The notes under the pieces are model-generated. The model had not been told where the DNA came from. It did not search any database and saw only the letters and a program-made list of their open reading frames with translations. Positions 19,751 to 34,491 of a stretch of DNA of 64,000 nucleotides are shown one piece after another. The number at the start of each line of letters is the position of its first letter. Positions within the stretch are counted from its first letter, which is position 1. The position numbers and the translations under genes were made by a program. The stretch comes from Escherichia phage A5-4, in sequence record OP744025. One strand, 5' to 3'.

Positions 19751-20047
19751 TTATTTAATACCTAATTCTTTTGCACTGTAAATATCATTACCTTCATAGC
19801 CTTTGTAGTAGATCAGGATATCTTTGACAATCTCTCCCGTCGGTCCGCTCCGGCGAGTACGTGGTCGCTGTGCATTGACCAAATAAACTTCACCACGAGT
19901 ATTTATTTTTGTTGTACGATGGCCTTCGACAAAGGTCAAAGTTGTATATGCAGGAACCTTAACAAGAACTTCTACCTGGTCACCAGCAGTATTCTGTTGT
20001 TCATTTGCCATATCATCTTTAACAACAGTAGTCATAAGTTTGGTCAT
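19751..20047 (-). CDS. hypothetical protein
   Basis: 98 aa ORF in block. Confidence 0.45.
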   Translation of the reverse strand: MTKLMTTVVKDDMANEQQNTAGDQVEVLVKVPAYTTLTFVEGHRTTKINTRGEVYLVNAQRPRTRRSGPTGEIVKDILIYYKGYEGNDIYSAKELGIK

Positions 20048-20049
20048 TT

Positions 20050-20373
20050 TTATTCTCCTTTGTTCAGTGTGGATACGAATTCGATATAAGATTCTGCATT
20101 TCGTTTATGATAAATCTTAGGGTAACTTTCGGTTACTTTGCTGTATTTGATGTATCGCTCAAACATACCGACGACACCACCAATGGAATGCACAACAACG
20201 CCCTCTTCACCAACAAAGGTAACAACCTCTACGAATGGAGTATTATCGTAAGAGCGATTTACAATCAGGTCGCCAACTTCAAATTCGATTTTATCATTTT
20301 GTGAGTAGTACATTTGTTTTCTCCTTTCTGTTTGGTATGGGAGAAGTATAGGGAAGTTTGATGAGGGTGTCAA
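20050..20373 (-). CDS. hypothetical protein
   Basis: 107 aa ORF in block. Confidence 0.45.
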   Translation of the reverse strand: MTPSSNFPILLPYQTERRKQMYYSQNDKIEFEVGDLIVNRSYDNTPFVEVVTFVGEEGVVVHSIGGVVGMFERYIKYSKVTESYPKIYHKRNAESYIEFVSTLNKGE

Positions 20374-20405
20374 TAGAAAAAACCGCCCGAAGGCGGTTTA
20401 TTTTT
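20371..20405. terminator. bidirectional rho-independent terminator
   Basis: Hairpin ccgccc-gaag-gcgg flanked by A-run and T-run, immediately downstream of the helicase gene; same hairpin recurs at 62178-62193. Confidence 0.6.
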
Positions 20406-20409
20406 AGGA

Positions 20410-21516
20410 TCAGAAAGGTGCGTCGTCGTCCCAATCATCCGGCTCTGTGTCCGGCACATCAGGAATATCACCTGTGGATTCAACGATACTTTGTTGTTCC
20501 CACGTAGGTTCTTCTGAAGGTTGTTCCATTTCTTCCATAACCTTCTTGATCTCTTCCTCTTGCTCACGCAGGAAGTTATCATCCGGCTCAGGAATATCTT
20601 CCTCTTTAATATCTGAACGAGTGAGATCACTGTTTTGTTCAGACAGAGGTTGAATCTCTGCTGCTTTAGGCTTAAAGTCTGGAGAACGATGATCATCTTC
20701 TGGATGAGCGGCATACCACTCACGAAGAGTTTCATAAGGACTCTCTAAGAAGCCCTCTGGCGGTTCCAGATAATCACCCGTGTCAATGTCATAGAACACA
20801 GGGAATTTACCAGCACGACCGTGTTTACGGTCATCCAGAATAACAAAGTAAGAAGTGTTACGTTGTTTCATCGGGAGTTCTGGATCTTTGTTACGTTCAA
20901 TACCCCACATGTAATAAGTGTTACGCATCATTGCACGGCTACCAGCAAACTGCGCTGACTGGACTTGACCACCAAATTCATGAGGCTTACCAGATTCAGG
21001 CTTGTTAAGGTGACAGAAGCAATAATAGGTAAAGCCAAGCTCTTTTGCCAGTTTGGAGATCTCATCAGAGAATCGTTCCAGTTCCTGGTTAGCTTCGGAA
21101 GCACTCATACCTTGCACAAGACGAGTGATTGGGTCAATAAAGATATCTTCACAACCTTCTACGATCACTGCGTGACGGATAGCACCTTTCAGTTCATCCC
21201 ATACTGCACGACCATAGTTGTTATAATAGATAACACTATCACCAACTTCATCAGTAGCCTTGATCAGTTCTTCTTGCTTAAAGTAGCCACGTTGACCTTC
21301 AAATACTTCATTACCCCAAATGTCACGGAAAGTTCCATCTTCTTGAGGAATCATTACCTTTTCTGCGTTAACAAAGTCTTTATGATAACGCTTACCTGCG
21401 ATCTTTTTACAGGTAATTTCGTTCTCTTCTTCAAACTTAAACACCGCAGCCTTTGACTTCTCAATACCTGTAATGTGTTCTACCATCTGGTTAAGAAGTT
21501 CAGACTTACCCATTTT
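20410..21516 (-). CDS. primase-helicase (T7 gp4-like), helicase domain, exon 2
   Basis: Begins within Walker A (..KMGKSELL); CFCHLNKPESGKPHEFGGQVQSAQFAGSRAMMRNTYYMWGIERN aligns with T7 gp4 [32 protein letters not shown]...IALERN; acidic C-terminus ...DDWDDDAPF. Exon start uncertain by a few nt. Confidence 0.75.
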   Translation of the reverse strand, partial: KMGKSELLNQMVEHITGIEKSKAAVFKFEEENEITCKKIAGKRYHKDFVNAEKVMIPQEDGTFRDIWGNEVFEGQRGYFKQEELIKATDEVGDSVIYYNNYGRAVWDELKGAIRHAVIVEGCEDIFIDPITRLVQGMSASEANQELERFSDEISKLAKELGFTYYCFCHLNKPESGKPHEFGGQVQSAQFAGSRAMMRNTYYMWGIERNKDPELPMKQRNTSYFVILDDRKHGRAGKFPVFYDIDTGDYLEPPEGFLESPYETLREWYAAHPEDDHRSPDFKPKAAEIQPLSEQNSDLTRSDIKEEDIPEPDDNFLREQEEEIKKVMEEMEQPSEEPTWEQQSIVESTGDIPDVPDTEPDDWDDDAPF

Positions 21517-22268
21517 CACCGTTATGTTCGACAGGGTTCGCTACTCCCTGCCCGTTCTCTTACGAACTGCTACATGTCCCCATGCAGACCAGACTATATC
21601 TTCAACCTGTTTCCAGGTGCTATGCACTTCGGACCGCTTGGCCCTACTCTACTCGATTCAAGAGTCTAGCTCTTGTCTTTCGATAGTCGTTGCTCCTTCC
21701 TCTCAACCGCTTTGTAATTTGTCTTACGGTATCTCTGTGTATCCCAAAATGCTCTGCAATTTCTTTTTGTTGAAGCGTGGTATTAATAACCATTTCGTAA
21801 ACCTGCTTCTCAAAATCATCAGCATATCTATTTGGATTTCTTCTACCGTTGGCCCAACCATGATCGACATTTTCTTTCGTGGTTGTCCATTCCAAATTAA
21901 CATCGTTGTTGTTTTGCCTGTCGCTATCTTTATGATTAACAACAGGAAGGTTATGAGGGTTATCAACGTAGTGTTCAGCCACCAATTGGTGAATAAATCT
22001 ACGTGTAACCTTACCATCTTTACTTAACGAAACTCTAAGATACCCTGAACTATTGGTATCCGGTTTGAGTTTTTTAAGCTTCCGGTAAACATCTCCCCTT
22101 CGGGTAATGATGTAATTTTCAAAACCTTTTATTCTTTTCATTTCCCCCCCTTGCAATAAACAAAGAGGTTGAGAGGCTTGGATCAGGATTACGTGTTCTA
22201 CGCTTCCCCTGAGTTCACATAGTATTTAGTCGAGGCATCTCTGCCAAGGCTGGCTAGACTTAATGTTT
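21517..22268 (-). mobile_element. group I intron carrying an HNH homing endonuclease gene, inserted in helicase Walker A codons
   Basis: About 750 nt between ...FIGAG and (K)MGKS...; S-like AAGAUAUAGUCU (21591-21606); R-like CAACGACUAUCG (21681-21695); candidate P/Q in the 5-prime part (CUCAGGGGAAGCG, AAUCCUGAUCC). Boundaries approximate. Confidence 0.6.
21644..22156 (-). CDS. HNH homing endonuclease (intron-encoded)
   Basis: 170 aa; GYLRVSL...FIHQLVAEHYVDNPHNLPVVNHKDSDRQNNNDVNLEWTTTKEN is an HNH signature; probable true start at the internal ATG (MKRIKGF). Confidence 0.75.
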   Translation of the reverse strand: MQGGEMKRIKGFENYIITRRGDVYRKLKKLKPDTNSSGYLRVSLSKDGKVTRRFIHQLVAEHYVDNPHNLPVVNHKDSDRQNNNDVNLEWTTTKENVDHGWANGRRNPNRYADDFEKQVYEMVINTTLQQKEIAEHFGIHRDTVRQITKRLRGRSNDYRKTRARLLNRVE

Positions 22269-23204
22269 ACCAGCACCGATGAAGTAACCTTCACCTGGAC
22301 GACGACCCAAGGTAAGCTTGGTCATGGTGGGCCAAGGGAACTTCTTGCCGAGTTTAGGGATCTCATGTGCCTTTTCGCGGAACTGTGAATAAGTCGAGAA
22401 ACCATCCGGCACATATTCCTTTGGCTTCATTGCAGCCCAAAACAACTGATCAGAAAGTCCTTTGTTATACATGTCGCAAGGGTCCATATCTTCTGGAATG
22501 TCCACGACCTTCATTTGTGGAATTACAGAGTATACCGCTGCAACTGCATCTTTACCTTTCATGATCCCTTTGGCCTTCTCTGCTTCTGTCGCACGGTCAG
22601 CATCGAAAGCTACGATAATCTCTTCAAACTTACTCAGAAGCTTATAGTTATTCTTCTGTGATAAGTTTTGCACGGCATTGGATGTACCGTTAGAGATAGA
22701 TACAACTGTGAAGTTTGGTTTACGAGTGGAACCATCCTTCGGTTTGTACTTCTCTGTCAATACCTGCCACAAGATTGCAGCATCATATTCACCTTCAGTG
22801 ATAAAGATCATACGTTTGGAAGACTTATTTGCACCTTCCAGCCCAAACATATCACAAGCCACAGATTGGAAACCAATAGTTGTAAAGTGACCTTTCTGTT
22901 GCTTAGGGATCGTAAGATCACGCTTCTTAAAACCTACAACCTTACCTTCTAATGTATACGGGAAATAATGTGCTTCTGGTGTCATACCGTCTTTAGCTGA
23001 CAGTTTGGTACGAATACCAAATCGTTTAGCTGTCTTTTCGTCGATACCGCGCTCAGGGATACTTTTGCACGGGTAAGTCAATACGTCTTCAACTGTTTCT
23101 TCTACACGAGACACACCACCACCATAATTACGTGCTACTGAAGCTTTAGGATTTTTATGTCCAAACTTATAACCGCCAAACAAACTTTCGCCAATAGTGC
23201 TCAT
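22269..23204 (-). CDS. primase-helicase (T7 gp4-like), primase (TOPRIM) domain, exon 1
   Basis: KRMIFITEGEYDAAIL, VVSISNGTSNA, IIVAFDADRATEAE, EYVPDGFSTY and TLGRRPGE align with T7 gp4 TEGEIDMLTV, VVSLGHGASAA, ILMFDMDEAGRKA, PWIPDGVVS, TLGARGGE. No N-terminal Cys4 zinc-binding domain. Frame stops 3 codons after the proposed splice site. Confidence 0.75.
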
Positions 23205-23361
23205 TACTGCTCCTTGATCATCGTCGCCAAATAAATAGTGTTACCGTTTGAATTAATACCTGCTGTTACAGGACCCATCAATTTATAACCATAATCGTAA
23301 TGCTTCAGTATATATTTCTGAAGAGACAATAGATTTGTATACGATAGGATCTTAATGTCCA

Positions 23362-23670
23362 TCAAAAACCTCCAGTTTCTTCATCAAATGCCTGACTTAC
23401 TTGTGCATCACGGATACGTTCTTCAATACAACGATACACTACTTCATACGGGATATCAAGAGCAATTTCTTCACCATCTTCATAAACAGTGATTGAAAAA
23501 ATATCTAAGTAATCTTCGGCATCCCAATCTGACTCTGCATCTGGAATACCTTTGTACATAACAACCTCTACTTCAACAACCACCTCTTTACCGATCGCCT
23601 TATGAAAATGTGTGAATTCGAAGTTTACTGTACGCATTTTATTTTCTCCTGATAATTTATATTTATTCAA
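23362..23670 (-). CDS. hypothetical protein
   Basis: 102 aa acidic ORF. Confidence 0.45.
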   Translation of the reverse strand: MNKYKLSGENKMRTVNFEFTHFHKAIGKEVVVEVEVVMYKGIPDAESDWDAEDYLDIFSITVYEDGEEIALDIPYEVVYRCIEERIRDAQVSQAFDEETGGF

Positions 23671-23673
23671 TTC

Positions 23674-23865
23674 TTACTTTTTGGAAATGATATGTTCTTC
23701 ACGAACTTGAAGCTTAGTACCATCTGTCATTTCGACAAGATAAGCATTGCAAAGAATGTATTCTTGTAGCAACAAGACCTTACCATCACCTTTCTTACCG
23801 TACTTTTCGTCAACTTGGTCGAAACTTACTTCATCGTTGATTGCATATTTAAACACATTACTCAT
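23674..23865 (-). CDS. hypothetical protein
   Basis: 63 aa ORF. Confidence 0.4.
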   Translation of the reverse strand: MSNVFKYAINDEVSFDQVDEKYGKKGDGKVLLLQEYILCNAYLVEMTDGTKLQVREEHIISKK

Positions 23866-24239
23866 GCGTATTCAACCTCACTGATCATTTCAAAACCATC
23901 ATTTTGGATTAACGTTTTAACAAAGCCAATATTACCATCTTCTATGTTTCTGTGCAACCACATATACCCTTCAGCACAGTAAACATTAACACCGTAGCCT
24001 AGTTTAGCTGCTCGTTCAAAATCACCACTTTCTTTCTTAACCAAACAACGAACCATCTTTTTCATCAGTCTTTCCCCCTTATGATCAGGAACAACGTACT
24101 TATTGATTGCCTTAACAAGATGTTCCCGTAATTGTTGTGTATGACCATACTTTGAAACAGTTTCCATAATCTCACCAATGCACTTATTGAACAGGTGGGG
24201 TGGAATTTTTAACTTTCCGAATTGATCCATATCAACCAC
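23862..24239 (-). CDS. hypothetical protein
   Basis: 125 aa ORF, 4-nt overlap. Confidence 0.5.
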   Translation of the reverse strand: MVDMDQFGKLKIPPHLFNKCIGEIMETVSKYGHTQQLREHLVKAINKYVVPDHKGERLMKKMVRCLVKKESGDFERAAKLGYGVNVYCAEGYMWLHRNIEDGNIGFVKTLIQNDGFEMISEVEYA

Positions 24240-24449
24240 CTAAGTTAGTGAAATCTCTATTGTAACTTTAGCTTTACCTGCCACCATTGCAGTTCCAGAT
24301 TGTAACGCAAGCTCGATAGTTTCAAAATTTACAGATGGACTTTGCAACAATATACCATCAACAGCACGGAAAACCTCAGGCTTTTGACTATCCCGATTGA
24401 TAAAATATAATTCTCGGCTCTCCATAAACTTCACAATGTCAAACATCAT
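24240..24449 (-). CDS. hypothetical protein
   Basis: 69 aa ORF. Confidence 0.4.
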   Translation of the reverse strand: MMFDIVKFMESRELYFINRDSQKPEVFRAVDGILLQSPSVNFETIELALQSGTAMVAGKAKVTIEISLT

Positions 24450-24452
24450 CGC

Positions 24453-24677
24453 TTACTCCTCAATAATTTCAAGTTTACCGTTAATAGTATACAGAGTTGT
24501 CGCCTTCTCTTCAACAACTTTTAACGCGTTAATGACAGAATCATAAAACTCTTCAGATTCCTTAACTTCTTGTTTGCACTTCTTGATATGGTCGGCACTA
24601 ATATCCCGAAGACTCAACAGTTGTGCACGATTAAGTACAGACAAGTCTACAGAAAAATCATCAACTTTAAAACTCAT
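24453..24677 (-). CDS. hypothetical protein
   Basis: 74 aa ORF. Confidence 0.4.
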   Translation of the reverse strand: MSFKVDDFSVDLSVLNRAQLLSLRDISADHIKKCKQEVKESEEFYDSVINALKVVEEKATTLYTINGKLEIIEE

Positions 24678-24759
24678 ATTTAATCTCCTTGTTTGTGTTC
24701 AGTTACTTTATCACTTTGAGAGAAAGATGCAACAAGATTATTGCATCTTTTTTAATTAT

Positions 24760-26118
24760 TTACTGGTTATTGAAAATACTCGGGAACTTCTCGTGATAGA
24801 AGTCTACAACATCCTGATCAACGATGATATCTTTTACTCGCAGACGCTTCATCAGGCGAAGACCTTCTACGGATGTGGCACGAGATAGCATAACGTAGGC
24901 TTGCCCAGGTGTAAAAGTACCAAAACCAAGATCAATATTTACTTTACCCAAGGTAAGACCCTGCGCTTTGTGACCCGTGATCGCATAGCCTAACTTAAAT
25001 GGGTACTGGATATACTCACCGATAGATTTATCGACAAGAACAGTTTTTTCAACCATCTTCTTGATCGTCTTTTTGGTTCCGTCCGGCATATCAACTTCTT
25101 CCTCTTCAAGCATCATCTTTTTCTCAGGTACTTGAGCAACGTTGTTCCATGTTGCAGGGCCGATTGGGACCATCTTGCCATCGATATCTACAACAACAAA
25201 GGTTTTTGCGATACGACGAACAATGCCGACTGTACCGTTGACATAATCAGGCACTTTCTTCTTCTGATCATTGTCGTTAACAACAATCATTACTTTAAGA
25301 CCTTCCTTGAGAAAGAGTTTTTCATTAACTGGACGTTCAACAAACTCACCAGTAATACGGGCATTAAATTCATGCTGTTCAGCATTAATCTTTGCGTACT
25401 CTTTGTTGTTAATCTCTTCTGCCAGCTTGTTTGTGGTAGTTAAAGTTACTGCCCCGTCAAGTGGACGACCAAAGCAACGCTGGTTAAAGAAGTTAACGGC
25501 ATCAGGGATGTTTTTCCCGATACGAATATTGTTCAGGTGTTCTGCAAACACTGGATCACTTTGACGATGAACTTTAGGAAGATAAGCATAGGTCAGATTC
25601 AAAGATTCCCAAGTTTCACACCCAAAAGGAATTTCTTTCCCGTGCAGTTCACGGAACAAAGGAACTTCTTCTTTCTTAAGTACAGGCTTGATCTGGAAGC
25701 CGTCACCAAACATGATGATCTGGAGTCCACCAAAAGGCTTATCGGATTTACGATGGTGGCGAAGTTTCATATCGATTTCTTTCAGTTTGTCACTTCGAGT
25801 CATACCGATCTCATCGAACACGATACCATCGAGTGCATCAGATGCCATAAGCATAGCTGCCTTTTTAGATTTTGCTTTATAATCCTCGGAAGTTGTGACA
25901 CCAAAGGTTAAACCAAACGCTTTATGGGTAGTAACACCACGGATGTTTAATGATGCCACGCCTGTTGGACCAACAAACAGAAAACTATCAGCAAAGAAGT
26001 CACGCAGTGCTGCGATCATCATACTTTTACCACTACCACCAGGTCCGGTGATAAAAACGTTTTCCCCATTCATGATTGCTTGCATTGCCGCTTCGTTACC
26101 GATCACTGTCTTAGTCAT
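24760..26118 (-). CDS. SF1 DNA helicase (Dda/RecD/Pif1-like)
   Basis: 452 aa; Walker A ITGPGGSGKS, Walker B IVFDEIGM, later motifs YAITGHKAQGLT and AYVMLSRATS. Confidence 0.75.
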   Translation of the reverse strand: MTKTVIGNEAAMQAIMNGENVFITGPGGSGKSMMIAALRDFFADSFLFVGPTGVASLNIRGVTTHKAFGLTFGVTTSEDYKAKSKKAAMLMASDALDGIVFDEIGMTRSDKLKEIDMKLRHHRKSDKPFGGLQIIMFGDGFQIKPVLKKEEVPLFRELHGKEIPFGCETWESLNLTYAYLPKVHRQSDPVFAEHLNNIRIGKNIPDAVNFFNQRCFGRPLDGAVTLTTTNKLAEEINNKEYAKINAEQHEFNARITGEFVERPVNEKLFLKEGLKVMIVVNDNDQKKKVPDYVNGTVGIVRRIAKTFVVVDIDGKMVPIGPATWNNVAQVPEKKMMLEEEEVDMPDGTKKTIKKMVEKTVLVDKSIGEYIQYPFKLGYAITGHKAQGLTLGKVNIDLGFGTFTPGQAYVMLSRATSVEGLRLMKRLRVKDIIVDQDVVDFYHEKFPSIFNNQ

Positions 26119-26329
26119 TATTTAGTTCCTCATATTCATATGGGTAGAGTAGATATCCTTTGTTGTCTTTTAGTGCTACGGCTATAACACTCTCAAGGTA
26201 AAAATCATCATCATAGTGAATTTCTTCAATTACAAGAATATCACCTTTCTTTGGATGGTCATCGCGATCACTGAAATCATTTAGTAACTTTATTTTTACG
26301 TTTTTCATATAACATCTCCGCTGCCACAA
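26111..26329 (-). CDS. hypothetical protein
   Basis: 72 aa ORF. Confidence 0.4.
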   Translation of the reverse strand: MWQRRCYMKNVKIKLLNDFSDRDDHPKKGDILVIEEIHYDDDFYLESVIAVALKDNKGYLLYPYEYEELNND

Positions 26330-26489
26330 GGGTTAAGATCATTGCCATATACATTACAATAGAAGTCACGCTGATTTCAATGAAAACCTCGTCGGTTACA
26401 TGATCAAAGTAAGCATCCTTTACATATCTGACACCTACTAGCCAAAATGTCATAACTACAGCAAATGTCAGTATCATGCGTTTTATCAT
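26277..26489 (-). CDS. small two-TM membrane protein (holin-like candidate)
   Basis: 70 aa with two hydrophobic segments and a basic C-terminus (EKRKNKVTK); ATGA-coupled downstream of the wall hydrolase gene. Confidence 0.4.
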   Translation of the reverse strand: MIKRMILTFAVVMTFWLVGVRYVKDAYFDHVTDEVFIEISVTSIVMYMAMILTLVAAEMLYEKRKNKVTK

Positions 26490-27001
26490 TTCTTTTTCTC
26501 CTCTTTGTCTTTGTAAAAGATGTGATTTTCTATGGTGACTGTTCTTTTTAGAAGTTTACGCCAAACAGGTTTAACCTTCTTAGTATGATAGTACAGAGAT
26601 CCGTGTGTTGGGTCAAACCTTTTATACAAAACCTCATTATTTTTTATCTTGTGTACAAACTTGGAGATGCTTAGAGCGCCCTCCCAGGAATCTTTATCGG
26701 TTATGCTATAAGAGGATTTAGTTAATGTCCATGAGAACTGAGAGGCTTGATATACAACCCCTTTCATTGTCCTTGGGAATTTATCATTTTTCATCCGATT
26801 CATTGTAACAAAGGCAACAGCCATTTGCCCATTTATTGTCTCACCTCGTGACTCCATATAGACATTACAGGCCAAGGCATTTACAGAATTATCCTTTTTG
26901 GTACATTTATGAATAACCTTCTGTGCTCTCTCTTTGGCATAAGTGACGCCTGGTGCCAGAGACAGAGTACAAATCAAACCACATAAAACTAATTTTTTCA
27001 T
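26486..27001 (-). CDS. secreted cell-wall hydrolase (SleB / Hydrolase_2-like)
   Basis: Signal-peptide-like MKKLVLCGLICTLSLAPGVTYA; NVYMESRGETINGQMAVAFVTMNR resembles the SleB-family core. Confidence 0.55.
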   Translation of the reverse strand: MKKLVLCGLICTLSLAPGVTYAKERAQKVIHKCTKKDNSVNALACNVYMESRGETINGQMAVAFVTMNRMKNDKFPRTMKGVVYQASQFSWTLTKSSYSITDKDSWEGALSISKFVHKIKNNEVLYKRFDPTHGSLYYHTKKVKPVWRKLLKRTVTIENHIFYKDKEEKKK

Positions 27002-27047
27002 TTTTCCTCCAATTGAGGACCCAGCTTATCACTGGGTCACCCTCTTG

Positions 27048-27434
27048 TCAACTACCTTCGATATGCTTCTGAATTTGATCAGCAATGCCTTTCCATAAAC
27101 CATTAAGGAAAGGGTTACTTGTGATGATTTCGCCCAACCAAGGGCCATACAGGCGGTATACGTAGTCATCTGTGATCGCATAGATACTTCCATCACGTAC
27201 AGCAAGACCACGTACAAGGGAGGTTGTTACACGACGACCTGCAAACCCCGTCTTTTGGTATTCCAGTTCAGAATGTTCAATATAACCTACCAGATTTACC
27301 AGATTTTGAGTTCCATCAATTGCAAACCCACATTTCTTTTCAAGGTCTTCTGAAATCTTACTGATCCCCTCTAATGCGAAGTTACCTCCAAATTTTAGGC
27401 CGTACTTAGCTGCAAGTTTATCGTGCGCTGTCAT
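27048..27434 (-). CDS. hypothetical protein
   Basis: 128 aa ORF. Confidence 0.45.
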   Translation of the reverse strand: MTAHDKLAAKYGLKFGGNFALEGISKISEDLEKKCGFAIDGTQNLVNLVGYIEHSELEYQKTGFAGRRVTTSLVRGLAVRDGSIYAITDDYVYRLYGPWLGEIITSNPFLNGLWKGIADQIQKHIEGS

Positions 27435-27625
27435 TTTACACTTTCCTTGATCAGTTGTTCAAAAGTTTCAACATCCTGAGTGATATGTGCTGTACTTCCA
27501 TCACGGAAGACAACAACGGTAGTTTCTTCACCAAAATGATTACCTTCACGAAAGAGAAGAATCTCTTCTACACGTAGAGCAACTTTAAGACCACCCTCAC
27601 CTGTCAAATTTGCTTTTACGAACAT
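27431..27625 (-). CDS. hypothetical protein
   Basis: 64 aa ORF, 4-nt overlap. Confidence 0.4.
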   Translation of the reverse strand: MFVKANLTGEGGLKVALRVEEILLFREGNHFGEETTVVVFRDGSTAHITQDVETFEQLIKESVK

Positions 27626-27816
27626 TATAAACCTCCCATGCTACGAAGAATAACATCTTTCATACGAATAAGAATTTCATTCTTATCCACCTCAGGAAAA
27701 ATTTCAACCAGTTTAATAAGTAAACTTCTTCCACTTTTATACTCACCCGATCTTGCAAGGTGTAGAACAGTTCTTGCAAACTCTAACTCGTCTAAAGGTA
27801 CTTTTCCTTCAACCAT
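27625..27816 (-). CDS. hypothetical protein
   Basis: 63 aa ORF. Confidence 0.4.
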   Translation of the reverse strand: MVEGKVPLDELEFARTVLHLARSGEYKSGRSLLIKLVEIFPEVDKNEILIRMKDVILRSMGGL

Positions 27817-28070
27817 TCCGCAGCCTCCTTCAAGTTGTCAAACACTTTATAAGCAACACCTGTATATTCTGAATCCCAATCGTCACTTGGGTCATAATCC
27901 TCGTTAATCTCTTCTACATCAACATGATACTTATTTTCGTAGTCCTTTTCAACAAGAATACGAAGATCATGATAAACAGATGCTTCAACTTGGTCTGCTA
28001 TTTTATCAAAGTAATCTCGATCTGTCATCTTTATACCCCACAACGTTGGAGAAAAGCTTCGCAAATGCAC
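27792..28070 (-). CDS. hypothetical protein
   Basis: 92 aa acidic ORF; start may be internal. Confidence 0.4.
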   Translation of the reverse strand: MHLRSFSPTLWGIKMTDRDYFDKIADQVEASVYHDLRILVEKDYENKYHVDVEEINEDYDPSDDWDSEYTGVAYKVFDNLKEAAEWLKEKYL

Positions 28071-28282
28071 AAAAAATCTTCTTTTTCTACATTCTTGATA
28101 TCCATACCGATCTCTTTAAAAAGTTTAGGAAGATCAAGAGCCTTCGCGTCCTTTTCTAACTTGAAATAGCCGTTCTTATCATACGGAATTTTTTGGAGGA
28201 ATAGAACATCTGGATTATCAGAGCCTTTTGTTTTTGTTGCTAGATAATCATAAATATCTTCACGAGGTACTGGCTTCTTCAT
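28031..28282 (-). CDS. hypothetical protein
   Basis: 83 aa ORF. Confidence 0.4.
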   Translation of the reverse strand: MKKPVPREDIYDYLATKTKGSDNPDVLFLQKIPYDKNGYFKLEKDAKALDLPKLFKEIGMDIKNVEKEDFLCICEAFLQRCGV

Positions 28283-28283
28283 A

Positions 28284-28727
28284 TTATTCTCCTGTCAAAT
28301 TTAATTTGTCACCTTTTCGCATCTCAAGGAAGGCTTTGAGATCTCCAAACTTAGTTTCCGTAAACGCAGAACCTGCCGGAGCTTTGTTATAATCCCATGT
28401 TTCCTTTGCTTCGTCAATATCTCCCACACGAGATTCAATTTTCTTTCTGAATTCGTAAACGGAATACTTTGAACGAATAACTTTCGGCGGTACGTAACGC
28501 ATAATGCCTGCGTCGCTTGATCTCTTTGATAATGAAACCTTTTGTTGATGCATTTTAACACATCTTAAAACGTACTCCTCGAATTCCTTTTTAAAAGCCA
28601 GGTGAATCAAGGATTCTGGTGCAGAGAAGTGAACCTTGCGATAAGACCCATCATCATCCATAAGGTAACACACTTCTGGTTTTCCTGCAAAAACTTCAAC
28701 ATCAAAACTTTCAATCTGGAACTTCAT
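28284..28727 (-). CDS. hypothetical protein
   Basis: 147 aa ORF. Confidence 0.5.
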   Translation of the reverse strand: MKFQIESFDVEVFAGKPEVCYLMDDDGSYRKVHFSAPESLIHLAFKKEFEEYVLRCVKMHQQKVSLSKRSSDAGIMRYVPPKVIRSKYSVYEFRKKIESRVGDIDEAKETWDYNKAPAGSAFTETKFGDLKAFLEMRKGDKLNLTGE

Positions 28728-28771
28728 AAAGTAAAACCCCCATCGGTTAGGATAGGGGTATATTACATTGG

Positions 28772-28966
28772 TTACTCTACAGAGTCAACCGTTTCAACAA
28801 AGATAATATCACCATATTTCAGCTTACGGCGGTTGTCACCTTTGTGGGTGTGGTCCACAGGGTTAAATGATCCAATATCATTGGAATGTTTCCAGCCAGA
28901 TTTAACAGAAAACTGCTTAACAACAGCAGCAAAATCTTCCGGCTTTAACTCAATCATATGCTCCAT
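28772..28966 (-). CDS. hypothetical protein
   Basis: 64 aa ORF. Confidence 0.4.
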   Translation of the reverse strand: MEHMIELKPEDFAAVVKQFSVKSGWKHSNDIGSFNPVDHTHKGDNRRKLKYGDIIFVETVDSVE

Positions 28967-29053
28967 TACATACTCCTTTCATAAGAAATTTCTCTATAGG
29001 GGCTTCATAGAGTAAAACCCCTATTGATTAAGATAGAACCTATTATCAGTTAT

Positions 29054-29443
29054 TTACTCGTCAACAACTTTCCAACTCCAAAGATAACCATCTTTAGGCA
29101 TAGTGGAACCTTTAACAAATATCATTTCGTCATAAAGATCATTTTCGTTAGGCAAATCTTCTAGGAGTTTAAACTCAACATTGTTATACTCATTATAGAT
29201 GATTTGTGCACGGAGTTTCTTGCCTACCTTAATGGAGTTAGTTTCTGATCGAACACATTCAATAATGTATCCCTTTTCATAAGAAATTTCTTCACGAGAT
29301 ACCTTATAGACCTTGACCAACGCAGGAAATTCCTTTTGTATTTTCAAAGCTGTATGCTGCGCTTCTTGTTCACTATCATAACCCTTGAAGAATTTAAAAA
29401 CTTCACCTTCCCACTTGATCCAGACTTCATATTCTTTTTCCAT
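29054..29443 (-). CDS. hypothetical protein
   Basis: 129 aa ORF. Confidence 0.5.
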   Translation of the reverse strand: MEKEYEVWIKWEGEVFKFFKGYDSEQEAQHTALKIQKEFPALVKVYKVSREEISYEKGYIIECVRSETNSIKVGKKLRAQIIYNEYNNVEFKLLEDLPNENDLYDEMIFVKGSTMPKDGYLWSWKVVDE

Positions 29444-29453
29444 GTATCACCTC

Positions 29454-29771
29454 TTAAGAAATAAGTTGGATTTTTGGACCTTTTTCTTTTTCTGCTTGAC
29501 GCAGGCGTTCACGAACGTACAGTTCGATATCAGTTGGTCGCCACAATTCAACTATAACCACATCGAAACGGTTTTCGTGAGCACCAGGTTGTTTATTCAT
29601 GTAGCTTGCCATCAGGTCTGCACTTTCTTGATCAGCAAATACAGCTTTTGCTACGATTGGCTTACCATCTTCAGTTTGTCCCATACTCATGCTCGGAATG
29701 TTGTGACCTGCATCATTATCACGAATAGCAAACACAAGAGTAGTTTCAGCATTTTTCAGAAAGTCAGTCAT
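29454..29771 (-). CDS. hypothetical protein
   Basis: 105 aa ORF. Confidence 0.45.
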   Translation of the reverse strand: MTDFLKNAETTLVFAIRDNDAGHNIPSMSMGQTEDGKPIVAKAVFADQESADLMASYMNKQPGAHENRFDVVIVELWRPTDIELYVRERLRQAEKEKGPKIQLIS

Positions 29772-29991
29772 TAATAATCTCCACGTCAGAATTGATATCA
29801 GTTTTATAAAACAGTCCCAGAGTTTCTGCGACCCCTATCTCTATGAAAACAGCATCCTCATACACAACTGCATCAGAGGTTGCGTATACTTTATTATAAA
29901 TTGGCTGGCCTGTAAAGTCACAATCAACAATATATTTAAACTTTTGGCCTTTCTTTACATCACGGGCCTTGATCAGCTTAACATTAATCAT
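29764..29991 (-). CDS. hypothetical protein
   Basis: 75 aa ORF, 8-nt overlap. Confidence 0.4.
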   Translation of the reverse strand: MINVKLIKARDVKKGQKFKYIVDCDFTGQPIYNKVYATSDAVVYEDAVFIEIGVAETLGLFYKTDINSDVEIIND

Positions 29992-30679
29992 CGGTACTCC
30001 CTATTTGTAATGGTACAATACCTAAAGCTTCCAAACCTGCCTCCACGACCTTACGATTTACAGAAGCCTCAAACTCTGCTTGTGCTTTCGCCTTAACAAC
30101 CTCGGAGTTTTCCTTAAACACGTTAATCGCATGTTGAGTGATATCCGGCAGCTTTGAATGAACACGAGTGATCTTATTCTTAAGTTCAGTCAATTCTTTC
30201 TTTGTTGCCTTACCTTTCTCAATAAGTTGCTGGACTTCAATTACGGCTTCCAGATGGTCCTTTAAAAGATCTTTTAAGTCTTTATCCACGTTCAAGCCGA
30301 TCATGTCAGAACTGTTTTGTTGTCCCTCAATGCCAGGAACATATCCATCGCCCTTGATATATCTTAATGTGATTGGTACGCCTTGTCCACTATGGGATGC
30401 CACTAACTCTGCCCATTGGTAAGATGTTAATTCAATCTCAATGACACGAGAGTTTCGTGACGTATAATAAGACGGCAAACCATAAGAGATCTCCTGGTAT
30501 GCGGTATCAATACGTAAACAAACACGTTGATTATGGGTCGTGTCTGATCCGAACATTTCCACATTCCCACCAGTTGGGTGAGTGATTGATGCCAACCCAT
30601 AAGCTGGGTGTGTCTGGATTACACGCTCAAATACTCCAGCTTCAGATAATTTTACTTCGGGCTTCATTACGTTTCTCAT
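29984..30679 (-). CDS. hypothetical protein
   Basis: 231 aa ORF with a coiled-coil-like C-terminal half. Confidence 0.5.
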   Translation of the reverse strand: MRNVMKPEVKLSEAGVFERVIQTHPAYGLASITHPTGGNVEMFGSDTTHNQRVCLRIDTAYQEISYGLPSYYTSRNSRVIEIELTSYQWAELVASHSGQGVPITLRYIKGDGYVPGIEGQQNSSDMIGLNVDKDLKDLLKDHLEAVIEVQQLIEKGKATKKELTELKNKITRVHSKLPDITQHAINVFKENSEVVKAKAQAEFEASVNRKVVEAGLEALGIVPLQIGSTDD

Positions 30680-30687
30680 AAAATCCC

Positions 30688-30888
30688 CTATTTTATTTTT
30701 ACAATGTATTTAGAAGTTCTTCGGATTCTTTGGGTCCTTGTCCAAGTTGGGTCAACATACTCTATTCCTGCCATACCCTTACTCGGGATGATTCTGGTGA
30801 TAATCCCCTTAAATATAGTTTTACGATCGTCATAAGTAAAAGCTACTTTGTCACCAACTTTCATCTCTATACCCATTAAATCTTTCAA
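30688..30888 (-). CDS. hypothetical protein
   Basis: 66 aa ORF. Confidence 0.4.
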   Translation of the reverse strand: MKDLMGIEMKVGDKVAFTYDDRKTIFKGIITRIIPSKGMAGIEYVDPTWTRTQRIRRTSKYIVKIK

Positions 30889-30892
30889 ATCA

Positions 30893-31117
30893 TCAACCCC
30901 GTCTTTCTTTCAGTTCCTGTAAGAACAACTCATCAGCAAGATTATTTAAACTATTTGCCAGATTTCGGGCTTGTTCACGAGTAACACGAATACCAACAGA
31001 ATCACAACCCTCACGATCGCAGTAGTCAATTCCGATCAGGATTTTACCTTTTTCAGTTGAGGGTGTAATATTAATTTCTGCCTGATAATCTACGCCAATA
31101 TCCTGGAATGTCATCAT
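30893..31117 (-). CDS. hypothetical protein
   Basis: 74 aa ORF. Confidence 0.4.
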   Translation of the reverse strand: MMTFQDIGVDYQAEINITPSTEKGKILIGIDYCDREGCDSVGIRVTREQARNLANSLNNLADELFLQELKERRG

Positions 31118-31272
31118 TTTGTGTATACCTCTTGTATTTCTGCGATTAATGTTTCAGAGGAACTGGCAATTTCTGCTCGGACTTCCTCTGCTTTTTCTTT
31201 ATCTTCAAATAGGGTCGGATGAATTTGAGCATCCTCACCACAATGAAGACACAGTATAGCATAATACTTCAT
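31114..31272 (-). CDS. small protein (52 aa), not in ORF track
   Basis: ATG 31272 overlaps the upstream stop (TGATG) and its stop overlaps the next start (ATGA); translation MKYYAILCLHCGEDAQIHPTLFEDKEKAEEVRAEIASSSETLIAEIQEVYTK. Confidence 0.35.
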   Translation of the reverse strand: MKYYAILCLHCGEDAQIHPTLFEDKEKAEEVRAEIASSSETLIAEIQEVYTK

Positions 31273-31634
31273 CACTTATTACCTTTTTCTTCTTCATGCG
31301 GCTTAACAATAATCTCTTCAATAATCTCAGGATCAATGTTTTTAGTATACATAAAAGTATAAAGCGCCGTTTTCAAAGCGGCACGTTTACCATAGTAATG
31401 ATCTGCGATGCCATTCTGTTTTGATAGTTTATGAATCTCCACTATTTTGCTTTCAACTTCTTCGTTGGAGATCTCTATATACTCGACTGCTGACATGCGT
31501 TCAATAAATATTGCATTAAGACCGTATAACTTGGCATCTCGCTCCACGTATTCTTTGAATCGCTGCCACTCTACCTCATCTTTGATAAGGTCTGCAATTT
31601 TAAAGATTACTGGGTGCTTACGTGATTTGGTCAT
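31272..31634 (-). CDS. hypothetical protein
   Basis: 120 aa ORF. Confidence 0.5.
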   Translation of the reverse strand: MTKSRKHPVIFKIADLIKDEVEWQRFKEYVERDAKLYGLNAIFIERMSAVEYIEISNEEVESKIVEIHKLSKQNGIADHYYGKRAALKTALYTFMYTKNIDPEIIEEIIVKPHEEEKGNK

Positions 31635-31690
31635 TTATTCTCTCCTCGTTTGTTTTGATAGGGTCATATTACACGACCCTTGATATGGTG

Positions 31691-31948
31691 TCAACTAAAA
31701 ATTAAAGAAACAACGTGGTAAATTACTTGGGGAAAGATAACTACGAAGTACAGATCAACAAATCCAGAGATAAAGTGATAAGCCTTCAGTTTTGTACGTT
31801 TACCTTTGTAAAAATCAGAGATGATTTTGAAATATTTATAAAGATTCCTTAAAAGTGCAAAACCGATCAACCCCAATCCACTAAGAACCACAACAAAAAG
31901 TGAAAACTGGACGTCCGCACTAAAAACACCAATAATAAGATCTAACAT
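31691..31948 (-). CDS. hypothetical membrane protein
   Basis: 85 aa with two hydrophobic segments. Confidence 0.45.
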   Translation of the reverse strand: MLDLIIGVFSADVQFSLFVVVLSGLGLIGFALLRNLYKYFKIISDFYKGKRTKLKAYHFISGFVDLYFVVIFPQVIYHVVSLIFS

Positions 31949-32229
31949 TAAATTTCCTCCAATTCAGACTCTACGATGTAAAAACCTTGTAATATTTCAT
32001 AAACCCACGTATTAAAATGGTCAGAATATACTATACCCTTTACACTATAAGTTTTATTTTCAAACTTAACTGTTGGGTTATTGACCCTCACCACAGTATC
32101 ACTTGCAAACTTAGGCATACCGTGCTTTGAAATTGCTTCACGATCAACTTTGTAAACATCCCTCCCAAAGAACTTTTCTAGTGGACAAAGATTATTCTCA
32201 AAATCAGTACCCATAGTCAACATCTCCAT
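31948..32229 (-). CDS. hypothetical protein
   Basis: 93 aa ORF. Confidence 0.45.
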   Translation of the reverse strand: MEMLTMGTDFENNLCPLEKFFGRDVYKVDREAISKHGMPKFASDTVVRVNNPTVKFENKTYSVKGIVYSDHFNTWVYEILQGFYIVESELEEI

Positions 32230-32470
32230 TAATTACCGAGGTGCTTTTGTTTGTCTTACCATTTGAAGTCTTGATATGAGTATCTGCATGAGGACAATAC
32301 ACCACATTCAGACTCATATCTCCTGGGTTAGCTTTGAGACGATAAATCTTACAACCTGCCTCTTTCATTTCTTGCGGTAAAATGTAATTAGTAGTCTTAT
32401 CGACAACGCCCTTTTGATCACAACCGGAAATGAAACATACCATAAAAATCGCAGCAATAATCTTTTTCAT
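32204..32470 (-). CDS. putative lipoprotein
   Basis: 88 aa; N-terminus MKKIIAAIFMVCFISGCDQ with lipobox ISGC. Confidence 0.5.
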   Translation of the reverse strand: MKKIIAAIFMVCFISGCDQKGVVDKTTNYILPQEMKEAGCKIYRLKANPGDMSLNVVYCPHADTHIKTSNGKTNKSTSVINGDVDYGY

Positions 32471-32817
32471 TTTACCTCCATCATAAATACTTTAACTTTT
32501 CGTACCTCTAATCTTACTTTATTAGAGCCTTGAAGTCTATTTCTTTTTTCAATTGCGTCATTAATGTCGCCATAGAAGTAGTGATCCTTACCTATTGTTG
32601 GTATTCCATTGCCGCCTTGCATAGCCAGTGTATACATTTCTTTTCCACCTTGCAACCCTTTTGATACTTTTTCTTCAAAATATTTATTGAATTGGGTTGG
32701 TGAAGTGTCAATTTCTACATCATCTTCCCATCCCATAACTTTATCCCAAAAACGGTCAATCTTGTCAAGAACTTTGTTACTAATCTTTTTAATCTTCTTC
32801 AACATAATCTTCCCCAT
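32467..32817 (-). CDS. hypothetical protein
   Basis: 116 aa ORF, 4-nt overlap. Confidence 0.45.
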   Translation of the reverse strand: MGKIMLKKIKKISNKVLDKIDRFWDKVMGWEDDVEIDTSPTQFNKYFEEKVSKGLQGGKEMYTLAMQGGNGIPTIGKDHYFYGDINDAIEKRNRLQGSNKVRLEVRKVKVFMMEVK

Positions 32818-33277
32818 TATTTATTTGGATACCGAAACGATTTTCGTTAGTGGAAAAGAAACCATTTTCCATGCGGCGAATCTCTTCTTTCATCACTTCC
32901 TGCATCGTTAATTTAAGGATTTCTTTGTTTAATTTTGGCTTAACTTCACGGAGCTTGTCAAGAAGTTTTTCCATTTCTTCTTTTACTTTTTCTTCCTCAT
33001 TTTCTACCTCTAATTGGTCCATTGCATCTTTACAAACACAGCAATGGCCCACAACTCTTAAAATATGATTTTGTATAGGTAATGCTTTTCTTCCACAATA
33101 CCCACAAACAATAGACCCACCGGAGGACCGGGCATCTATCGTCAATGTAGGCTTGGCCCCTTCTGCTTGAGAATGCCAAGTCTTTTTACCCTGGTAATCA
33201 TACATAAAGAATTCGTAGGATCTTTCATCAACGTGGTCTTCGAGCATATGTAAAGTTCGTGTATTGAAATGTTTCAT
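32789..33277 (-). CDS. hypothetical Cys-rich protein (zinc-ribbon-like)
   Basis: 162 aa; CGYCGRK...GHCCVC cysteine cluster plus a Glu/Lys-rich helical tail; first gene of the leftward block. Confidence 0.5.
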   Translation of the reverse strand: MKHFNTRTLHMLEDHVDERSYEFFMYDYQGKKTWHSQAEGAKPTLTIDARSSGGSIVCGYCGRKALPIQNHILRVVGHCCVCKDAMDQLEVENEEEKVKEEMEKLLDKLREVKPKLNKEILKLTMQEVMKEEIRRMENGFFSTNENRFGIQINNGEDYVEED

Positions 33278-33397
33278 TTTTAACTCCTCGTCGTTTGTAT
33301 GTGCTAACTATACGAGAACTTGAGGGGAAGATCAATACTTGATTTGCATTTTATTTTCATTATACTGTGCACATCTAAAACGAGAAGGAGATGACAA

Positions 33398-33961
33398 ATG
33401 AGTCAAGATAAAGAGTTAGCCATTGCGATATCCGTAGCTGCTTCTGCCCATGTTGACCAAGTAGATAAAGGGGGGAATATCTATATTCTTCATCCTTTGC
33501 AGGTGATGCAAACATTGCAGCAAAAGGGAAGGGAAGATTTAATGGCAGCAGGAGTTTTGCATGATGTGATTGAAGATACTGAAATCACTATGGAACACCT
33601 CTTTAAAAAGGGGATTTCAGAAAGAACCTTAGTGATTGTCGATGCAGTGACAAAGAAACGTAAGCAATCTTCATCTGATTACCTAGAGGGGATTTTAGAG
33701 AGTGAGGGTGCTTGTCATGTTAAGCTTGCGGATCTTAAACACAACTTAGATATTCTGCGAACTTGTAGCACCACAGAAAAAGACTTGCAACGGGTCAGGA
33801 AGTATGTAACAATGCACTTGTTGATTACGGAGATGGTTGATTGGTATGAAAGTATCGGAAGGTATCTCGATTATTGTGATTCTTTTGCCTATTCTAGCTA
33901 TCTCGACGAACGTAAAGAATTTGTTCAGAAACTTATTAAAAAATGGAAGGAGTTTAAATGA
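33398..33961 (+). CDS. small alarmone hydrolase (SpoT/RelA-type HD-domain (p)ppGpp hydrolase-like)
   Basis: 187 aa; ILHPLQV, AAGVLHDVIEDT and VKLADLKHNL align with SpoT hydrolase motifs (ITHP, LLHDVIEDT, IKLADRTHNMRTL). Confidence 0.75.
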   Translation: MSQDKELAIAISVAASAHVDQVDKGGNIYILHPLQVMQTLQQKGREDLMAAGVLHDVIEDTEITMEHLFKKGISERTLVIVDAVTKKRKQSSSDYLEGILESEGACHVKLADLKHNLDILRTCSTTEKDLQRVRKYVTMHLLITEMVDWYESIGRYLDYCDSFAYSSYLDERKEFVQKLIKKWKEFK

Positions 33962-34491
33962 AAAAGGTATTGAGTATTGAGCCGTTCACAACAACATACT
34001 TTGACGATTTGGAACGTCATGGTGATTATGGGGTACAAGACGCTGATGGTTGGAAAGAATTCCCTGAAGAAACAAAAGGTGACATTACAAAGCTCGGTTG
34101 TAAGATCAATGGATCTGAACCAAAAGGTGTTTACACCATGTTTTCTTTCCTTGAAGCTATGAACCCAATGTACAAGGGAGATCGGCAATTTGGTTTTTCT
34201 TTTGCATCATTCCTTACTTGTAGCTGTGGTCATGGGGGTTGTGCAGGCTATCATGATAATGTGGTTATTCGACGTAAAAAGAATACCGTGATGGTCATGG
34301 GTAAAAAGGAAGATGGTTATGACGAAGGTGTTGTATTGACAGGTGAATCTGTTGTATACTTCGATAAAAAGCAGTGGGACGGTGTTCTAGAACACTACCT
34401 TAAACTCTTCAAAGAAAATCCTGATGGTGTTTTTGAAGATGCGGGTTTTATGTTTACTGGTCGTTGGGGGACTAAAAATTTTTCAAAATAA
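33958..34491 (+). CDS. hypothetical protein (ATGA-coupled to the alarmone hydrolase)
   Basis: 177 aa; CSCGHGGCAGYH Cys/His cluster; start overlaps the upstream stop. Confidence 0.55.
   Translation: MKKVLSIEPFTTTYFDDLERHGDYGVQDADGWKEFPEETKGDITKLGCKINGSEPKGVYTMFSFLEAMNPMYKGDRQFGFSFASFLTCSCGHGGCAGYHDNVVIRRKKNTVMVMGKKEDGYDEGVVLTGESVVYFDKKQWDGVLEHYLKLFKENPDGVFEDAGFMFTGRWGTKNFSK

Follow-up and report, generated by a model that had tools for sequence, protein, structure and literature searches.

What does a secreted cell-wall hydrolase, coupled to a small membrane protein, contribute to a virulent phage when the pair is encoded among genes for DNA replication? The question is raised by a locus in a 64,000-nucleotide (nt) stretch of DNA from Escherichia phage A5-4 (sequence record OP744025; this whole stretch is referred to below as the window). 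Its minus strand carries a gene for a 171-amino acid (aa) SleB-like hydrolase and, overlapping the stop codon of that gene, an open reading frame (ORF) for a 70-aa protein with two putative transmembrane (TM) segments. A reading of the window made from the sequence only, without database searches, had suggested that the two genes may form a lysis cassette. The account that we favour, with a probability of roughly 0.55, is that the hydrolase is an auxiliary, Sec-exported muralytic enzyme, distinct from the main endolysin of the phage, and that the small protein is a facultative, holin-like membrane partner. Within this account, the bond that is cleaved and the time at which the pair is expressed are matters that we infer.

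By its sequence relationships, the window phage is a virulent, Vequintavirinae-like myophage of E. coli. The window region is ~97% identical to that of Escherichia phage A73 and 92-94% identical to those of A7_1, LTH01, UPEC06 and W70, which are 137-145-kb myophages filed under the Vequintavirinae; in the UPEC06 record, the entry for the first gene of the pair reads 'putative cell wall hydrolase SleB', and the second gene is listed as hypothetical. Neither the pair nor its interpretation is new: in a sister genus, CB7_83/CB7_82 of Pectobacterium phage CB7 have been put forward as an endolysin plus class II holin candidate by Buttimer et al. (2020; PMC7344957), and the value of the window is mainly confirmatory.

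The hydrolase and its predicted export

The ORF, its hydropathy profile and a match to Pfam family PF07486 (Hydrolase_2; E=2.3e-23, 83.1 bits against a gathering cut-off of 27) bear out what the sequence-only reading had claimed for the first gene, namely a SleB-like hydrolase with a signal-peptide-like N terminus and the motif ESRGE...GQMAVAFVTMNR. Residues 53-163 of the protein cover the Pfam model completely (positions 1-100 of 100), and there is also a match to PHROG 938, 'endolysin' (5.6e-27). An AlphaFold2 model of the protein, with a mean predicted local distance difference test score of 86.7, is confident for residues 30-165 and disordered for residues 1-23. When this model was compared with the PDB through Foldseek, only the SleB structures 4F55 and 4FET were matched (E ~1e-6, probability 1.0, target-normalised TM-score 0.74). 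Glu50 lines up with the YGESRGE motif of these two Bacillus structures and was invariant in two homologue alignments (n=28 and n=31), in the larger of which Glu54 was at least 90% conserved; from the literature on Bacillus SleB, we take Glu50 to be the catalytic residue. In comparisons with five related phages, the ratio of nonsynonymous to synonymous substitution rates (dN/dS) was ~0.03 for the hydrolase gene and 0.02 for the neighbouring helicase gene. The protein is almost certainly what these predictions describe, an exported enzyme of the SleB fold that cleaves peptidoglycan.

Sequence comparison also indicates that the enzyme is not an orthologue of the spore protein. Its score against the NCBIfam equivalog model for SleB, TIGR02869, was 63.4 bits, where the cut-off is 236.5, and only model positions 73-201 were matched. 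The operon partner of SleB, YpeB, is a membrane protein of ~450 aa with PepSY domains; no such partner is found here, the downstream gene encoding 70 aa without a significant Pfam or NCBIfam match. Thus, the phage enzyme resembles the spore cortex lytic transglycosylase of Bacillus in its catalytic fold and in the sequence E-S-R-G-E with the catalytic Glu, and it differs in having an extra N-terminal strand and a Cys pair, and in lacking both a YpeB-like partner and the N-terminal peptidoglycan-binding domain (no PG_binding domain was detected with Pfam). As E. coli does not sporulate, the enzyme would have to work on ordinary peptidoglycan, and with Glu50 as the general acid the enzyme would be expected to cut its glycan strands in the mode of a lytic transglycosylase.

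The hydrolase begins with MKKLVLCGLICTLSLAPGVTYA, which is followed by KE. This N terminus has the n/h/c layout of a Sec signal peptide, with a hydropathy peak at residues 3-13, and a signal peptide of residues 1-22, cut after VTYA, would take the enzyme to the periplasm. By inspection of an alignment of homologues (A1), a small-x-small sequence followed by K-E/D is conserved at the cleavage position in most members of the Vequintavirinae-type clade, and the sequence of the h-region varies freely across that clade. A hydrophobic N-terminal stretch was observed, at a lenient threshold, in all 73 of the homologue loci that we scored, although in about 4 of these the protein is short and the stretch is the start of the catalytic domain. 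The 73 loci were drawn from viral metagenomes and reference phages; the contigs came from an alignment-based scan, a single-protein scan having confirmed no relative.

Two cysteines just upstream of the catalytic Glu, Cys33 and Cys45, are kept in most of the Vequintavirinae-type clade. The other viral homologues (L007-L086) have a Cys at position -8 from the Glu in 60 of 68 cases and a second Cys before an xVVxQ motif. The aligned stretches of Bacillus SleB have neither of these pairs, whereas conserved pairs are a feature of phage and Gram-negative SleB-like enzymes. Such cysteine pairs in the phage-type enzymes fit with folding in the oxidising periplasm, and Cys33 and Cys45 probably form a disulfide there. 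Export and cleavage after Ala22 would convert the 19.8-kDa preprotein to a very basic form of 149 aa (17.5 kDa, pI 9.9) that consists of a single SleB/CwlJ-type domain, probably stapled by the Cys33-Cys45 bond.

Two other readings of the N terminus were considered. A lipoprotein was rejected, being contradicted by the sequences LVLC and GLIC, which are not lipoboxes, and by the replacement of Cys with Ser in several homologues. The second, which is not supported, was a signal-anchor-release (SAR) endolysin with disulfide caging like that of P1 Lyz, involving Cys7/Cys11 and Cys33/Cys45. There is indeed a likeness to the SAR endolysin/pinholin pairs (phage 21 R/S21, P1 Lyz), in that an exported lysin adjoins a two-TM protein of predicted N-in/C-in topology with a possible dual start, and in that cysteines are placed both within the hydrophobic N-terminal segment and, as a pair, close to the catalytic Glu; also, about half of the h-region of the hydrolase is Gly, Ala, Ser, Thr or Cys. 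However, the catalytic family is a different one, and the N-terminal Cys residues are absent from CR8, rV5 and other homologues. Since the site of signal-peptidase type is conserved in most members of the clade, cleavage is to be expected and not release of a signal anchor.

The two-TM protein and its coupling to the hydrolase

A self-contained lysis cassette, which is also the reading of Buttimer et al., would consist of a true endolysin delivered by Sec and a class II holin or pinholin that collapses the proton-motive force and thereby activates the enzyme. The layout of the second gene is of the kind that such a cassette would have, with overlapping stop and start codons and a Shine-Dalgarno sequence of its own. 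As the sequence-only reading had described, the small ORF overlaps the hydrolase gene through an ATGA and encodes two hydrophobic segments (Kyte-Doolittle maxima are given in Table 1) and a charged tail, EKRKNKVTK. The charges of the protein are +2 at the N terminus, -2 in the loop and +3 at the C terminus, from which the positive-inside rule predicts an N-in/C-in topology. The N-terminal MIKRM is a possible dual-start motif; its counterpart in the homologue from metagenomic contig L092 is MIKM.

The likeness to a holin or pinholin that had been suggested for this protein lies in general traits that recall class II holins, namely the two TM segments, the predicted N-in/C-in topology, the possible dual start and the basic tail. 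By inspection, the first TM segment, MILTFAVVMTFWLVGV, is strongly hydrophobic and not SAR-like, and the second, ISVTSIVMYMAMILTLVAA, is without a G/A/S-xxx-G zipper, which are differences from the SAR endolysin/pinholin systems as well. No holin family was matched in Pfam (best, DUF2627 at E=0.017, below the cut-off), in PHROGs (phrog_15393, of unknown function, E=0.002) or in NCBIfam. Near-identical copies were the only relatives detected in 5.8 billion word-indexed proteins and, through tblastn at E<=10, in 50,697 phage records, and homology therefore cannot tell the identity of the protein.

Might the small ORF be spurious or decaying, with the hydrolase alone functional? An exhaustive phmmer search of 1.84 billion representatives returned only the cluster of the 70-aa protein itself, the ORF is absent from close relatives, and the next ORF, which overlaps the 70-aa frame at its end, is not annotated in three of five related GenBank records. 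Yet none of the five related phages has lost the frame, although as many as 30 of its 210 nt differ, and dN/dS values of 0.07-0.14 place it, like the hydrolase gene, under purifying selection; on these grounds the ORF is a real gene. A strong Shine-Dalgarno sequence, the ATGA overlap, the 31%-identical homologue at the same position in L092 and two-TM analogues at this position in three further lineages likewise argue against a spurious ORF, which we regard as highly improbable. Judged from its sequence, this small gene encodes a genuine protein of the inner membrane, and its translation is coupled to that of the hydrolase.

A two-TM ORF follows the hydrolase gene in several Vequintavirinae lineages, and this recurrence also favours a lysis cassette. 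The examples are Cronobacter phage CR8 (62 aa, annotated as 'membrane protein'), Erwinia phage pEa_SNUABM_55 (76 aa), Klebsiella phage P8734 (51 aa, unannotated) and the metagenomic relatives L092 (70 aa) and L093 (73 aa). The homology of the L092 protein to that of the window is detected at a pairwise E of 5e-11, and the hydrolases of these two loci are 82% identical. In the genus Certrevirus, CB7_83/CB7_82 and CR8 gp090/gp089 lie in the same series of genes as the window pair, that is, an upstream gene, a SleB-like gene with signal peptide, an overlapping two-TM ORF, a small ORF and a PIF1-like helicase gene. However, the window phage belongs to a separate, unclassified group that infects E. 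coli, and the small membrane proteins of CR8 and the window have no detectable similarity to each other, although the hydrolases are 57% identical; the CR8 protein is also without the basic tail and the possible dual start.

Several observations on the coupling are difficult to reconcile with a cassette. No two-TM gene is present in L090 and L091, two independent contigs with a hydrolase that shares 85% identity with that of the window, and the hydrolase gene there directly overlaps the homologue of the 65-aa ORF that comes third in the window; the 141-kb contig ERZ27245996:k123_278439 is of the L090 type. The two-TM gene is also missing from L095, where the helicase gene directly follows that of the hydrolase, and from rV5, where rIIA does so; the literature notes a like exception in phage CR9. 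The C-terminal charges of the positional analogues are, by inspection, about +3, 0, -4, -1, -2 and +3, the tail being neutral or acidic in L092, L093, CR8 and pEa_SNUABM_55, so that the basic tail is not a conserved feature. Among the 73 scored loci, a small two-TM gene lies downstream of the hydrolase gene in two, both of them Vequintavirinae references that had been added to the set, and in none of the viral-metagenome loci. In T5-like loci, the gene after the hydrolase encodes a 56-aa non-membrane protein. Also, by a crude gene call, the local coding strand of the window has at least six other small ORFs with at least two predicted TM segments.

From these comparisons of sequence, the coupling is confined to the Vequintavirinae, and the two-TM gene is dispensable in close relatives and very fast-evolving. 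The 70-aa protein is best described as a facultative, lineage-specific partner of the hydrolase that resembles a class II holin. Any function given to it is presumptive; our first guess is a holin-like trigger, with exclusion in the manner of Imm or a regulatory role as serious alternatives. Possibly, the protein sits N-in/C-in in the inner membrane through its two TM helices and acts in a holin-like way to depolarise the membrane and so to trigger or tune lysis, without being the only or the essential holin of the group.

Two other arrangements were noted among the environmental homologues. In about 10 marine or environmental contigs (L018, L021, L024, L038, L055, L069, L073, L074, L079 and L084), the SleB-like gene is followed by a gene for a conserved soluble protein of 71-87 aa that ends in ...KLPI or ...KLPL, and in another group of contigs an exported SleB-like gene is followed by one for an NAD-dependent epimerase-like protein of ~295 aa.

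Other lysis genes and the probable role of the pair

The sequence-only reading had named a different endolysin/holin pair elsewhere in the genome as one finding that would overturn its cassette. The endolysin half of such a pair was found in the five closest relatives, and no second holin was identified. Phages A73, W70, LTH01, UPEC06 and A7_1 each encode, outside the region corresponding to the window, a 127-aa protein of the Peptidase_M15_4 family that hardly varies among them (99-100% identity) and lacks a signal sequence. Its identity to the 'endolysin' of CB7/phiTE is 83.5%, and that to lys of Yersinia phage PY100 is 72%; it matches a solved Peptidase M15C-domain protein (5.7e-48), the L-Ala-D-Glu endopeptidase 8Q2G (2.6e-45) and the T5 endolysin 2MXZ (1.5e-19). 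In these relatives, the gene lies in a nucleotide-metabolism block with ribonucleotide reductase and PhoH genes. Phage A7_1 also has a gene for an Rz-like inner-membrane spanin (i-spanin; phrog_4297, 3e-20) just upstream of TerL, overlapped by one base by a gene for a 99-aa lipoprotein with the lipobox LVGC, which is typical of an outer-membrane spanin (o-spanin). For CB7, too, a separate M15 endolysin and spanins beside the terminase gene are listed (PMC7344957).

Of the lysis cassette, the SleB-family enzyme with an export signal and the coupled two-TM protein stand, whereas the separate M15 endolysin and spanins of the relatives and the facultative nature of the two-TM gene tell against the whole. 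Endolysin, holin and spanins do not cluster in this genome type, in which the spanin genes are beside TerL, the M15 gene is apart from them and the two-TM gene is not always retained. In favour of the cassette, it remains that no other holin is recognisable in the genome type and that the CB7 homologue of the hydrolase, a SleB-like protein with a signal peptide that occurs in all Vequintavirinae genera, is, according to Buttimer et al., toxic to E. coli on expression (PMC7344957; data not shown there). We consider a self-contained cassette to be possible, though rather unlikely.

The auxiliary role that we prefer for the hydrolase is the more likely one because this genome type has a classical cytoplasmic endolysin and spanins, and because the exported SleB-like family coexists with separate endolysins in T5-like and rV5-like phages. 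Exported SleB-type enzymes are encoded by more than 1,200 sequenced phage genomes, T5-like and rV5-like genomes among them, and a separate endolysin is found beside the SleB-type enzyme in T5-like, rV5-like and Phapecoctavirus phages. In T5-like phages, lys, holin and SleB-like genes are together in the early region (PMC3326045); a PF00959 and a PF07486 enzyme occur together in a Phapecoctavirus phage (PMC10793346); and an active 156-aa lysozyme-like endolysin, LysECP26, has been characterised from rV5-like phages (PMC9728275), of which rV5 itself also carries a SleB-like gene. The T5-like SleB ORFs (for example, AKFV33 ORF81) are similar to the window gene in encoding an exported PF07486 protein, ~40% identical over the domain, in the early region and beside an endolysin of the M15 family, and differ from it in the absence of a following two-TM gene and in the arrangement of the Cys pair. 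Lysqdvp001, considered as a characterised Hydrolase_2 endolysin, was dropped as a comparison, since the literature shows it to be CHAP-based.

The closest functional model, by analogy, is Tgl of the Kayvirus phages of Staphylococcus, a small muralytic enzyme with a cleavable signal peptide that is separate from the main late endolysin (PMC7150955). Tgl is a Sec-secreted second lysin with an early-type promoter and can be transcribed in the manner of an early gene; it works with the main endolysin after the membrane has been permeabilised, and its toxicity to E. coli depends on the presence of the signal peptide. Tgl differs from the window enzyme in that it belongs to an unrelated, IsaA/SceD-like transglycosylase family and a Gram-positive host, and no coupled small membrane protein is described for it in the text consulted (PMC7150955). 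On the pattern of Tgl, the window hydrolase would be a second lysin, made from the replication gene string and pre-loaded in the periplasm, where it may carry out low-level remodelling of the wall or stay latent until the membrane is de-energised at lysis. The main endolysin would then most likely be the cytoplasmic L-Ala-D-Glu peptidase (Peptidase_M15_4) encoded elsewhere, acting with Rz/Rz1-type spanins encoded beside the terminase gene. Another exported lysin, Lys44 of phage fOg44, behaves in a similar way.

A number of points weigh against an auxiliary role. No other holin was recognised in the window or among the genes of the relatives, so that the 70-aa protein, which recalls class II holins in its pair of TM segments, its predicted N-in/C-in topology, the possible dual start MIKRM and its basic tail, is still the best-placed holin candidate. 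The M15 gene, too, is not in the late region, and no holin gene adjoins it, so that the M15 protein is argued to be the primary enzyme by analogy only, and the remainder of the genome is known from the relatives and not from the window phage itself. Bacillus SleB requires the muramic-delta-lactam of the spore cortex, so that action of the phage enzyme on vegetative E. coli peptidoglycan is an assumption. With regard to timing, a promoter/terminator scan of positions 20000-35000 gave 56 promoter sites where 39.9 +/- 6.0 were expected, none of them convincingly upstream of the hydrolase gene, and is uninformative; our literature search found no Vequintavirinae transcriptome. Apart from the toxicity remark on CB7, we found no work in which a PF07486 enzyme of a phage of Gram-negative bacteria was characterised biochemically or by genetics.

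In this connection, one other set of membrane proteins was observed. Phage A7_1 (OP795442.1; L097 in our set) encodes at 28578-28910 a 110-aa protein (phrog_5345) that combines a TM segment at the N terminus with a coiled coil and is present in 105 phage records across Vequintavirinae genera, and at 28907-29365 its partner in a late operon, a 152-aa protein with 4-5 TM segments (phrog_7451). The two genes lie between baseplate/tail genes. This late-operon pair is an alternative candidate for a holin/antiholin, both phrogs being of unknown function.

The position of the pair among replication genes suggests an explanation of another kind, in which it is an early module for envelope modification or superinfection exclusion, with no role in lysis; the hydrolase would remodel peptidoglycan, and the two-TM protein would be Imm-like or would regulate or inhibit the hydrolase. 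In phage T4, the early protein Imm (~83 aa) has two TM segments. In rV5, Klebsiella phage P8734 and Erwinia phage pEa_SNUABM_55 (L002, L004 and L005), the SleB-like module abuts a ~660-aa rIIA-like gene; genes of this kind, with the annotations 'lysis inhibitor' or 'membrane integrity protector', come directly after this slot in other Vequintavirinae genera. Also, the fast divergence and sporadic presence of the small protein would fit an accessory gene that faces the host or a competitor. The small protein, however, does not resemble Imm, Sp or the members of any other exclusion family in sequence, the dN/dS values are well below 1 with no sign of diversifying selection within the species cluster, and nothing explains how cleavage of peptidoglycan would give exclusion. 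In the window group and in Certrevirus, the place of rIIA is taken by the PIF1-like helicase gene; a search of the window and of segments of A7_1 and UPEC06 gave no rIIA homologue, and there is none in the Certrevirus genome type either. On this evidence, an exclusion module seems unlikely to us.

If the auxiliary role is correct, the lysis programme of Vequintavirinae-type phages, which are under development for phage therapy, would include a second, Sec-delivered muralytic activity, and the observations would help to explain why many large virulent phages keep an exported SleB-like enzyme beside a normal endolysin. A still broader proposal, which we put forward as a speculation with the odds well against it, is that exported SleB-type enzymes are an unrecognised second route of attack on the wall in big virulent phages of Gram-negative bacteria. 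The enzyme would be pre-loaded early and held latent, in parallel with the holin-endolysin-spanin pathway, and would here be triggered or restrained by a private, fast-evolving two-TM partner, as a Sec-lysin with a mini-holin or a lysin with an anti-lysin. What role the exported SleB-like proteins have across their family, and which protein serves these phages as holin, are the questions that appear worthwhile.

Coordinates and neighbouring genes

Table 1. Features of the hydrolase/two-TM protein locus and the genes on either side, numbered by position in the window
Feature	Positions	Strand	Basis or remark
Hydrolase coding sequence, 171 aa	26486..27001	-	ORF listing, Pfam, PHROG, AlphaFold2, dN/dS
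Shine-Dalgarno GGAGG of hydrolase	27006..27010	-	4 nt 5' of ATG; read from sequence
Predicted Sec signal peptide, residues 1-22	26936..27001	-	n-region MKK, h-region LVLCGLICTLSLA, c-region PGVTYA; predicted cleavage A22/K23
Cys33 (26905..26903) to Cys45 (26869..26867)	26867..26905	-	clade-conserved pair just upstream of catalytic Glu
SleB/CwlJ-type catalytic domain, residues 37-165	26507..26893	-	phmmer alignment to 4F55/4FET begins at residue 37
Glu50 codon, predicted catalytic, motif Y-M-E-S-R-G-E	26852..26854	-	invariance; aligned with SleB motif
Two-TM protein coding sequence, 70 aa, 8.2 kDa	26277..26489	-	ATGA overlap with hydrolase stop at 26489..26486
Shine-Dalgarno GAGGAG of 70-aa ORF	26498..26503	-	inside codons for hydrolase C-terminal KEEKKK; 8 nt 5' of ATG
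TM segment 1, residues 5-20, MILTFAVVMTFWLVGV	26430..26477	-	Kyte-Doolittle maximum 2.37; preceded by M-I-K-R-M
TM segment 2, residues 36-58	26316..26384	-	Kyte-Doolittle maximum 2.22 (peak residues 35-61); followed by basic tail EMLYEKRKNKVTK
65-aa acidic protein	26111..26308 (ATG 26308)	-	phrog_14198, E=9e-9; overlaps end of two-TM ORF by 32 nt
PIF1/Dda-like DNA helicase	24760..26118	-	next gene of leftward string; Pfam PF05970, 6e-22; phrog_30356, 2e-236
128-aa cytoplasmic protein, function not known	27048..27434	-	phrog_12555, E=7e-29; upstream of hydrolase

Beyond the helicase gene, the minus strand carries genes for a primase/helicase and a DNA polymerase, which places the pair within a string of replication genes and confirms the early/replication block that the sequence-only reading had recognised. 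That reading had called the position unusual, and this part of it we did not find to hold: the early/replication context of the hydrolase gene is the same in every Vequintavirinae relative examined, and in T5-like phages the gene is likewise in the early region. At each Vequintavirinae locus examined (UPEC06, CR8, P8734, pEa_SNUABM_55, rV5, L090 and L092), a gene of similar size to that for the 128-aa protein lies directly upstream of the hydrolase gene, a correspondence seen in gene order.

The hydrolase gene and the adjoining helicase gene appear to have different histories. The hydrolase of the window has no amino-acid differences from that of UPEC06, at a synonymous divergence (dS) of 0.36, and dS is ~1.0 in comparison with A7_1 and W70; the helicase gene is near-identical to those of A73 and W70 (dS 0.03-0.07) and has a dS of ~0.46 with UPEC06. 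This contrast in dS across positions 24760-27001 implies a recombination breakpoint between the two genes and makes the segment a mosaic junction.

The primase/helicase gene (phrog_239) is split at 20410-23204 on the minus strand. The ORF at 22260-23204 corresponds to profile positions 101-366 and that at 20410-21519 to positions 368-658, and the insert of ~740 nt between them holds an ORF at 21644-22156. The insert may be a mobile-element insertion or an intron-like interruption.

Finally, the window contains other genes for putative membrane or envelope proteins. On the minus strand, positions 3900-4472 encode a 190-aa protein in which three predicted TM segments are followed by a collagen-like Gly-X-Y stretch; it has a weak PHROG match to 'immunity to superinfection' and, through the repeat, matches to tail-fibre families. 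Two small lipoprotein-like ORFs on the same strand, at 4653-4952 and 32204-32470, have the lipobox-type N termini MKRLIVLCILLLIGC and MKKIIAAIFMVCFISGC, and further small two-TM ORFs occur at, for example, 4949-5104, 6368-6685, 17946-18574 and 31691-31948. The presence of several small two-TM ORFs shows that the phage encodes many early membrane proteins.

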